IMG/VR virus record: IMGVR_UViG_2563366879_000002
Location: 1-44,111 of that record
DNA from: a virus
Lineage: Duplodnaviria; Heunggongvirae; Uroviricota; Caudoviricetes
DNA length: 44,111 nucleotides
Direction: 5' to 3' (one strand)
Part shown: positions 11,991 to 12,840 of the stretch, in pieces
Position numbering within the stretch: position 1 is the stretch's first letter
Layout: every line of letters starts with the position of its first letter
Made by a program: the position numbers and the translations under genes
The notes under the pieces: generated by a model
Told to the model about the DNA's origin: nothing
Seen by the model: only the letters and a program-made list of their open reading frames with translations
Databases searched by the model: none

Positions 11991-12153
11991 ACGTTACTCG
12001 ATTAAAGAGCATTAGTTCAGATGTGAATTGACATTTTCACGGCACAGGATTGAGCTAGCGTGGTTGTCTGCTTTGTGTCAAAAGCAGATATTACCAGATT
12101 TAGACATCTATTCCCGATAGCCCAGCTCTGATGCTACACTCTGTGCTATTTTC

Positions 12154-12840
12154 ATGACCCCAATAAAAATATTTATGACTATTGCTGATTTCAAACGGCC
12201 TAAATTGGAGCTCCCAAACGGGGCAAACAAACTACTACTGCACTCTTGCTGTGCTCCATGTTCCGGTGAAGTGATGGAGGCGCTTCAGGCCTCGGGAATC
12301 GACTATACCATCTTTTTCTACAACCCGAACATTCATCCTCAGAAAGAGTATTTAATTCGTAAGGATGAGAATATTCGCTTTGCTGAACAACACGACGTGC
12401 CATTTATTGATGCTGATTACGATACAGACAACTGGTTTGAACGTGCCAAAGGAATGGAATGGGAGCCCGAGAGGGGGATCCGTTGTACCATGTGTTTTGA
12501 CATGCGTTTTGAGCGGACAGCGCTGTACGCTGCTGAAAATGGTTTCAGTGTGATCAGCAGTTCACTGGGCATTTCACGCTGGAAAAATATGCAGCAGGTT
12601 AACGACTGTGGGCGGCGAGCCGTCGCGCATTATCCGGGCATGGTGTACTGGGATTATAACTGGCGCAAGCAGGGCGGCTCGTCCCGCATGATTGAAATCA
12701 GCAAGCGCGAAAAATTCTATCAGCAGGAATATTGTGGCTGTGTGTATTCTCTGCGCGATACCAATCTACACCGCAAATCTCAGGGACGCCCTCTTATCAA
12801 AATTGGTCAACTCCACTACGGTAAAGAAGAGAAGGAGTGA
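12154..12840 (+). CDS. Cys-rich metalloprotein resembling DUF208 / epoxyqueuosine reductase QueH (228 aa); start codon uncertain
   Basis: Motifs [28 protein letters not shown]; assignment from remembered DUF208 signature, not a search. Confidence 0.5.

Follow-up and report, generated by a model that had tools for sequence, protein, structure and literature searches.

QueG (YjeS) is the enzyme with which Escherichia coli reduces epoxyqueuosine (oQ) at position 34 of tRNA to queuosine (Q), oQ34 to Q34 (PMC5175355, PMC5372724). It is encoded by a core gene, uses cobalamin (vitamin B12) and two [4Fe-4S] clusters, and its dependence on cobalamin is documented (PMC5175355, PMC4646009), a cobamide-dependent reduction of oQ in E. 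coli being credited to Frey 1988 as that work is cited in the same two papers. QueH carries out the same reaction but is not homologous to QueG, and its structurally characterised representative is the enzyme of Thermotoga maritima (PDB 7LC5, 7LC7, 9DEU; mutants 9D86, C9S, and 9DCO, D13N). From the titles of these entries C9 and D13 are residues that have been probed, and the enzyme binds queuosine. Staphylococcus aureus has QueG and QueH in one cell with different expression profiles, which has been interpreted as an adaptation to cofactor supply (PMC13443448). Phages are likewise known to carry queuosine-pathway genes, in the 7-deazaguanine clusters (DpdA together with FolE, QueD, QueE and QueC), but these clusters modify DNA and comprise the early pathway only, and no QueA, QueG or QueH was present in the viruses analysed (PMC6884629). 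Here a queH gene is described from a 44,111-nucleotide stretch of Caudoviricetes DNA (IMG/VR record IMGVR_UViG_2563366879_000002), referred to below in its full length as the window. Unlike the S. aureus pair, which are as described the bacterium's own genes, the E. coli copy of QueH is mobile, prophage-borne and limited to 19% of strains. It is proposed, with a probability of roughly 0.8, that the gene encodes a functional QueH carried as accessory cargo of a Rac-like prophage, which would give its host a B12-independent completion of queuosine.

Family assignment and start of the prophage QueH

The maximal uninterrupted open reading frame (ORF) at this locus runs from 12154 to 12840 on the plus strand and encodes 228 amino acids (aa), as in the initial annotation, and residues are numbered here according to it. 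Its product is a confirmed member of the QueH family, Pfam PF02677 (IPR003828, formerly DUF208), which it matches with 220.7 bits against a cut-off of 23.5 and over profile positions 1-174 of 175. A phmmer search matched the solved T. maritima enzyme (7lc5) over residues 27-203 with an expectation value (E) of 5e-22, at an identity of only ~31%. An AlphaFold2 model made with 32 homologs, with a predicted local distance difference test (pLDDT) score of only 75 and a predicted template modelling (pTM) score of 0.75, retrieved T. maritima QueH entries of the PDB in all five top Foldseek positions (the wild type 7lc5, the guanosine monophosphate complex, the queuosine complex and the C9S and D13N mutants), with E between 9e-10 and 2.5e-8 and template modelling (TM) scores of 0.74-0.79 when normalised to the target. 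The next matches were the distantly related PP-loop enzymes TtuA, LarE and NAD synthetase, with E of ~1e-4 and TM scores of up to 0.5. The protein thus belongs to the same full-length Pfam family as the T. maritima enzyme and shares its fold.

Conservation was assessed in an alignment of 72 length-filtered representatives of 50%-identity clusters, taken from the best 150 of 4751 such clusters, and the window protein keeps all columns with a conservation of 90% or more among these representatives. The Cys-rich motifs that had been quoted initially are all present, namely a first motif at residues 27-37 that holds CCAPC, CTMCFDMRF at 111-119 and CGCVYS at 194-199. C32, C33, P35, C36, C111 and C114 are each more than 90% conserved among the representatives, while C194 and C196 of the CxC motif, also kept, are ~80% conserved with exceptions that are mostly truncated sequences. 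The pairs C32/C33, C111/C114 and C194/C196 correspond to C9/C10, C87/C90 and C169/C171 of T. maritima QueH. Further matches to the family consensus are N57, N59, I60, P62, E65, Y66, R69, W94, E106, G108, R110, R118, A126 and K144. The T. maritima enzyme has CCAPD, with D13 in last place, whereas the window protein has CCAPC; CCxPC is the family norm and the motif of the crystallised enzyme the exception. The window protein differs from T. maritima QueH also in ~19 extra N-terminal residues and in a basic C-terminal tail of ~27 residues that is common to gammaproteobacterial orthologs. The chromosomal QueH proteins of Enterobacterales are full-length orthologs including both termini, and all are annotated as epoxyqueuosine reductase QueH.

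The initial annotation had noted a resemblance to DUF208/QueH epoxyqueuosine reductase and proposed a search with the QueH hidden Markov model (HMM) and a structural alignment to a solved QueH as checks; the near full-length profile match, the sequence match to 7lc5 and the five structural matches bear this identification out. Its alternative, that of a different Fe-S or zinc protein, was rejected on the profile, sequence, residue and fold matches. Since family, reaction and structure of the enzyme were established before and RefSeq names the protein correctly, the identification as such adds nothing new.

The real start of queH is most likely the ATG at 12175, which yields a protein of 221 aa, and not the ATG at 12154, because RefSeq places the start there, the N-termini of the orthologs line up with it, and the stretch between the two ATGs does not behave like coding sequence. 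The seven codons concerned show non-synonymous differences between alleles at 4 of 6 positions, as against a non-synonymous divergence (dN) of ~0.016 in the remaining gene, and in two viral contigs a 1-nt insertion between both ATGs puts the upstream one out of frame. The GC content of queH (47.5%) is close to that of the window (48.3%).

Carriage by lambdoid prophages

The window queH resides in a largely complete Rac-like lambdoid prophage adjoining ttcA, a context that agrees with the initial view of the gene as prophage cargo. Positions 11991-12900 are 100% identical to the genome of E. coli 2009C-3133 (NZ_CP013025.1) and positions 11559-13233 are 99.9% identical. The annotated order in that strain is ttcA, intR, xisR, ralR, recT, recE, kilR, repressor and cro-like genes, ydaT, ydaU, ydaV, DUF1627 and DUF977, followed by QueH, hokD, DUF1367, DUF1364, DUF1133, tRNA-Thr, tRNA-Gly, lysis genes, trkG and the head and tail genes. 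The site of queH is variable: in the related prophage of NZ_CP024232.1 homology to the window extends up to 11979 and resumes from 12886, and the slot is filled there by a DUF4406 pseudogene and a gene for a hypothetical protein of 140 aa. This slot, flanked by the DUF977 gene and hokD/sok, holds queH in Rac-like, Qin-like and other lambdoid backbones as well as in the isolated temperate phage HannyBb. In HZ13 and HannyBb other DNA lies on both sides of the block equivalent to 12051-12846 and the block itself is preserved, from which it follows that queH travels together with a 124-bp leader. The gene resembles in this respect the known morons of lambdoid phages, such as tRNA genes or trkG in Rac, which likewise sit between backbone genes, alternate with other cargo in their slot and move with their leader. 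Another candidate for an empty site (H26) was rejected on account of its unrelated context and NZ_CP024232.1 was used in its place.

The leader contains a candidate promoter of the gene's own. The initial annotation had named two promoter-like hexamers, TTGACA and TACACT, but these are 101 nt apart and cannot belong to one promoter. TTGACA was rejected as a -35 element: no -10 hexamer stands at a distance of 16-18 nt, its position is upstream of the cassette, and HZ13 and HannyBb do not conserve it. TACACT (12135-12140) fared better, being preceded by TG and forming part of an extended -10-like motif, TGcTACACT, that is invariant in four aligned alleles and in all six upstream variants among 137 viral contigs, with variation in the adjacent bases. 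A weak, extended -10-type promoter of its own is probable for queH, and expression from it in the present window is plausible. A leader hairpin at ~12064-12091 (10-bp stem in the minimum free energy fold) was rejected as a conserved element because the IHE3034 allele carries two non-compensated changes in the stem; the z-score of the leader fold is only -1.85.

A second prophage clade, represented by IMG/VR UViG_2923634449_000004 (L103), encodes a QueH that is 87% identical to that of the window, with an alignment that is limited to the coding region and flanks that are unrelated. Although the flanks do not align, TGCTACTAT is found at -44 before queH in this clade. At 5944-8588 of L103, queH stands head-to-tail with a gene for a 573-aa AIPR/AbiU-like abortive-infection protein, which is followed by a strong terminator at 8564-8588. 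The two lie antisense to the early operon of the phage; with a terminator of their own they require independent transcription.

queH was found in 1031 of 5426 complete E. coli genomes (19%), 947 of which have it with at least 80% coverage, whereas queG is present in all 5426. Wherever it occurs, QueH thus duplicates a step that the host already performs, which accords with the initial remark that it is not the housekeeping route of E. coli. In IMG/VR at least 189 viral contigs carry queH, and a scan with a distant profile gave 209 confirmed matches. When the two IMG/VR scans are combined, 140 of 150 loci encode a protein at least 95% identical to that of the window and the other ten are more divergent, so that the distant-profile scan provides little evidence for QueH in unrelated phages. 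Records that bear phage names and were matched by tblastn (H46-H50; Staphylococcus or Listeria phage, e.g. the 282-kb 'SA 1306 Kay', and many unannotated faecal 'Bacteriophage sp.' contigs) have QueH proteins of 31-51% identity and may be chromosomal DNA filed as phage.

The gene is under strong purifying selection. Intact copies make up 137 of the 140 close viral queH genes and encode eight protein alleles, and the pairwise ratio of non-synonymous to synonymous divergence (dN/dS) among prophage alleles is 0.03-0.08 at dS values of up to 0.30. The nearest named relatives, 80-86% identical, are the QueH proteins of Erwinia (86%), Providencia (84%) and Photorhabdus (80%), and others in Proteus, Gibbsiella and further genera. 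In the three genera whose loci were inspected, the gene has a core-chromosome context: purL and glrK flank it in Erwinia (L166, 454-7126), tmcA and purC are its neighbours in Providencia, and its surroundings in Photorhabdus are not those of a phage. Unlike the prophage gene, these chromosomal genes lack the upstream TGcTAC motif. In Providencia (L003-L005, 3265-6645) the chromosomal queH is divergent to tmcA, a tRNA-acetylating gene. Between prophage queH and these chromosomal genes synonymous sites are saturated and dN is only 0.13-0.15, as it is between Providencia and Photorhabdus. The capture of queH was therefore not recent, and the prophage gene is a conserved member of long standing in the enterobacterial QueH lineage rather than a fragment in decay.

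Proposed role in queuosine completion and its alternatives

By homology QueH would act as a cobalamin-independent, iron-sulfur- and iron-dependent tRNA epoxyqueuosine(34) reductase that converts oQ to Q, its predicted substrates being the wobble base of tRNA-Asp, -Asn, -His and -Tyr. It is said, in work of Li et al. from 2021, to use a [4Fe-4S] cluster with an adjacent iron. The substrate would be supplied by tgt and queA, which are core genes of E. coli. E. coli does not synthesise cobalamin de novo, and since QueG is both universal and B12-dependent, B12-independent completion of Q is the most likely benefit: lysogens or infected cells could finish Q under a shortage of cobalamin or where the step from oQ to Q is limiting. 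Two recent papers lend plausibility to such a benefit, the one on the QueG and QueH pair of S. aureus (PMC13443448) and one on the oQ-to-Q step in phage-infected Shewanella (bioRxiv 10.64898/2026.03.05.709803). The cassette of ~0.8 kb is inserted with the replication module on one side and the hokD/sok and nin region on the other. queH has the orientation of cro, ydaT, ydaU, ydaV, DUF1627 and DUF977, that is of the early-right operon, so that read-through into it would be expected upon induction.

Several observations weigh against this proposal. No Shine-Dalgarno sequence precedes the ATG at 12154 or that at 12175, and a consensus scan for sigma-70-like sites (two hexamers, 9 of 12 matches) found none on the plus strand in 11991-12153 and did not call TGcTACACT. 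Promoter and terminator can be demonstrated for a classical moron, whereas queH of the window has the conserved motif only, and a scan of the window found no terminator-like site between 12840 and the sok/hok locus. queH is missing from 81% of the complete E. coli genomes and pseudogenised copies exist, some of them cut by insertion sequence (IS) elements or deletions. No NCBIfam model matches the window protein, and in PHROGs it falls in phrog_3217, 'unknown function'. To our knowledge there is no phenotype that separates cells with oQ-tRNA from those with Q-tRNA, which leaves the size of any benefit uncertain. The label of phrog_3217 explains why phage pipelines call queH hypothetical, as in HannyBb; the profile begins at the internal Met41 (window 12274) and is thus without the first cysteine motif, CCAPC.

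The absence of the gene from four-fifths of the genomes, the truncation of some copies by IS elements or deletions and the universality of queG would also be expected if queH were a redundant hitchhiker without selective value that persists only by way of the prophage. This is very improbable given dN/dS values of 0.03-0.08 at dS of up to 0.3, the integrity of 137 of 140 copies with their eight protein alleles, and the retention of the cassette in several different prophage backbones. It is just as hard to credit that the protein has been recruited to another job, be it 7-deazaguanine modification of phage DNA, defence, or a counter-defence such as a change in the anticodon loop that evades an anticodon nuclease. 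Phages do borrow early genes of the Q pathway for DNA modification (PMC6884629), and the slot elsewhere holds cargo reminiscent of defence, with hok/sok adjoining and AbiU/AIPR in one clade. However, no DpdA/TGT, QueC, QueD, QueE or FolE is annotated in the prophage (as judged from the RefSeq annotation, without a dedicated HMM scan of every ORF), and Hutinet et al. report no QueH among the deazaguanine-DNA phages that they analysed (PMC6884629). PADLOC returned no family for QueH and for the neighbours only weak helix-turn-helix and HNH noise, and the protein, 80-86% identical to chromosomal housekeeping orthologs, has lost none of the invariant residues.

A role as a helper of the lytic cycle is compatible with a functional QueH that completes Q independently of B12, but as an account of why the gene is carried it is rather unlikely. 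queH would then serve the lytic cycle and not lysogenic conversion, with transcription mainly from the early-right promoter after induction, raising Q and lowering oQ either for phage translation or against a host response to the level of Q. In favour of such a role the gene is co-oriented with the early-right genes with no predicted terminator before it, and the isolated phage HannyBb has retained it. In Shewanella, queG expression and the ratio of Q to oQ both rise upon infection by phage, a change that marks the step from oQ to Q as a regulated bottleneck (bioRxiv 10.64898/2026.03.05.709803). The clade with 87% identity is at odds with this role: its queH runs against the early operon and has an abortive-infection gene as its partner, the layout of a moron expressed in the lysogen. 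The codons of queH, moreover, show no bias between NAU and NAC (20 against 21).

It is possible, though at clearly less than even odds, that lambdoid prophages in E. coli and its enterobacterial relatives disseminate an oQ reductase that works without B12 and thereby uncouple the last step of Q synthesis from the supply of cobalamin. If so, about one-fifth of strains would have their Q-tRNA fully matured in situations where other strains are left with oQ, such as B12-poor niches or phage infection, the decoding of NAU and NAC codons could shift, and the fitness, biofilm or virulence traits of lysogens or the yield of phage could change. queH would in that case be a phage auxiliary gene that targets the tRNA modification of the host and not DNA. 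No paper discussing QueH of E. coli prophages, its carriage or its frequency was found in the literature covered, which does not include the key QueH papers. The prophage context is mildly interesting in itself, as temperate phages bring a tRNA-modification enzyme into 19% of complete E. coli genomes on top of QueG. If queH indeed frees the completion of Q from cobalamin, it would offer a simple and testable case of a prophage that tunes the translation of its host, with a bearing on recent reports of oQ-to-Q regulation in phage infection.

Surroundings of the gene

Features at and around queH in the window (positions are those of the whole stretch)
Feature	Position	Strand	Basis or remark
DUF977 gene (upstream neighbour, last of the replication module)	11574..11990	+	Pfam PF06163, E=1e-29; RefSeq
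Variable cargo slot between the DUF977 gene and sok/hokD	11980..12885	.	Comparison with NZ_CP024232.1 (L165)
TTGACA hexamer of the initial annotation	12028..12033	+	
Portable queH cassette, ~0.8 kb (leader and coding sequence)	12051..12846	+	blastn block boundaries against HZ13 (L009) and HannyBb (L012)
TGcTACACT, extended -10-like motif, candidate own promoter	12132..12140	+	43 nt before ATG 12175
Upstream in-frame extension of the maximal ORF	12154..12174	+	Probably 5' untranslated leader; non-coding-like evolution
queH coding sequence	12175..12840	+	221 aa and stop; RefSeq WP_016233020.1, 'epoxyqueuosine reductase QueH'
sok/hokD type I toxin-antitoxin locus (downstream neighbour)	12908..13233	+	Rfam RF01794, 119.6 bits, 12908-13083; RefSeq hokD coding sequence 13078-13233
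tRNA-Thr(UGU) and tRNA-Gly(UCC)	15484-15559, 15563-15637	+	ARAGORN; Rfam tRNA

The two tRNA genes start ~2.64 kb downstream of queH, much as the initial annotation had it, but its suggestion that they form a translation-tuning unit with queH did not hold. Neither tRNA has the GUN anticodon of a queuosine substrate, and in 45 related viral queH loci the neighbouring set varies between Thr-Gly, Met-Lys-Thr-Gly, Met-Arg-Arg and none; no tRNA with a GUN anticodon occurs in the E. coli-type loci among these 45. A functional link was rejected on these grounds, and queH and the tRNA genes are regarded as separate cargo. The sole queuosine-substrate tRNA among the 45 loci is a tRNA-Asn(GTT) at 8749-8824 of L101, 2.1 kb downstream of an 80%-identical queH; it is probably not cargo but the site of prophage attachment.

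As a hot spot for cargo, the slot next to hokD/sok differs in its contents among prophages (the window, NZ_CP024232.1, HZ13 and HannyBb): it holds queH alone, a methyltransferase remnant with queH and a further ~370 bp, or the DUF4406 pseudogene with the gene for the 140-aa hypothetical protein. At times the queH cargo decays, as in E. coli strain 127 (L011, 4185-4622), where queH is truncated at its 3' end and an IS2 lies in the neighbouring DUF977 gene. In L103 a perfect LexA box (CTGTATATTTATACAG) precedes an ORF of 113 aa that adjoins the queH island (5262-5626), and the N-terminus of this ORF (GFPSPAADY) looks UmuD-like.

Elsewhere in the window, the RalA antitoxin small RNA (Rfam RF02694, 223.8 bits) at 1557-1735 adjoins ralR, as expected in a Rac-type prophage, and the trkG potassium transporter gene at ~17723-19180 is carried likewise by the Rac prophage of K-12. 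An IS3-family element is located in the head-gene region (~26063-27276), and a ParB/Srx gene is present in two fragments (~19318-19575 and ~27321-27419) that lie 8 kb apart, which suggests a rearrangement.

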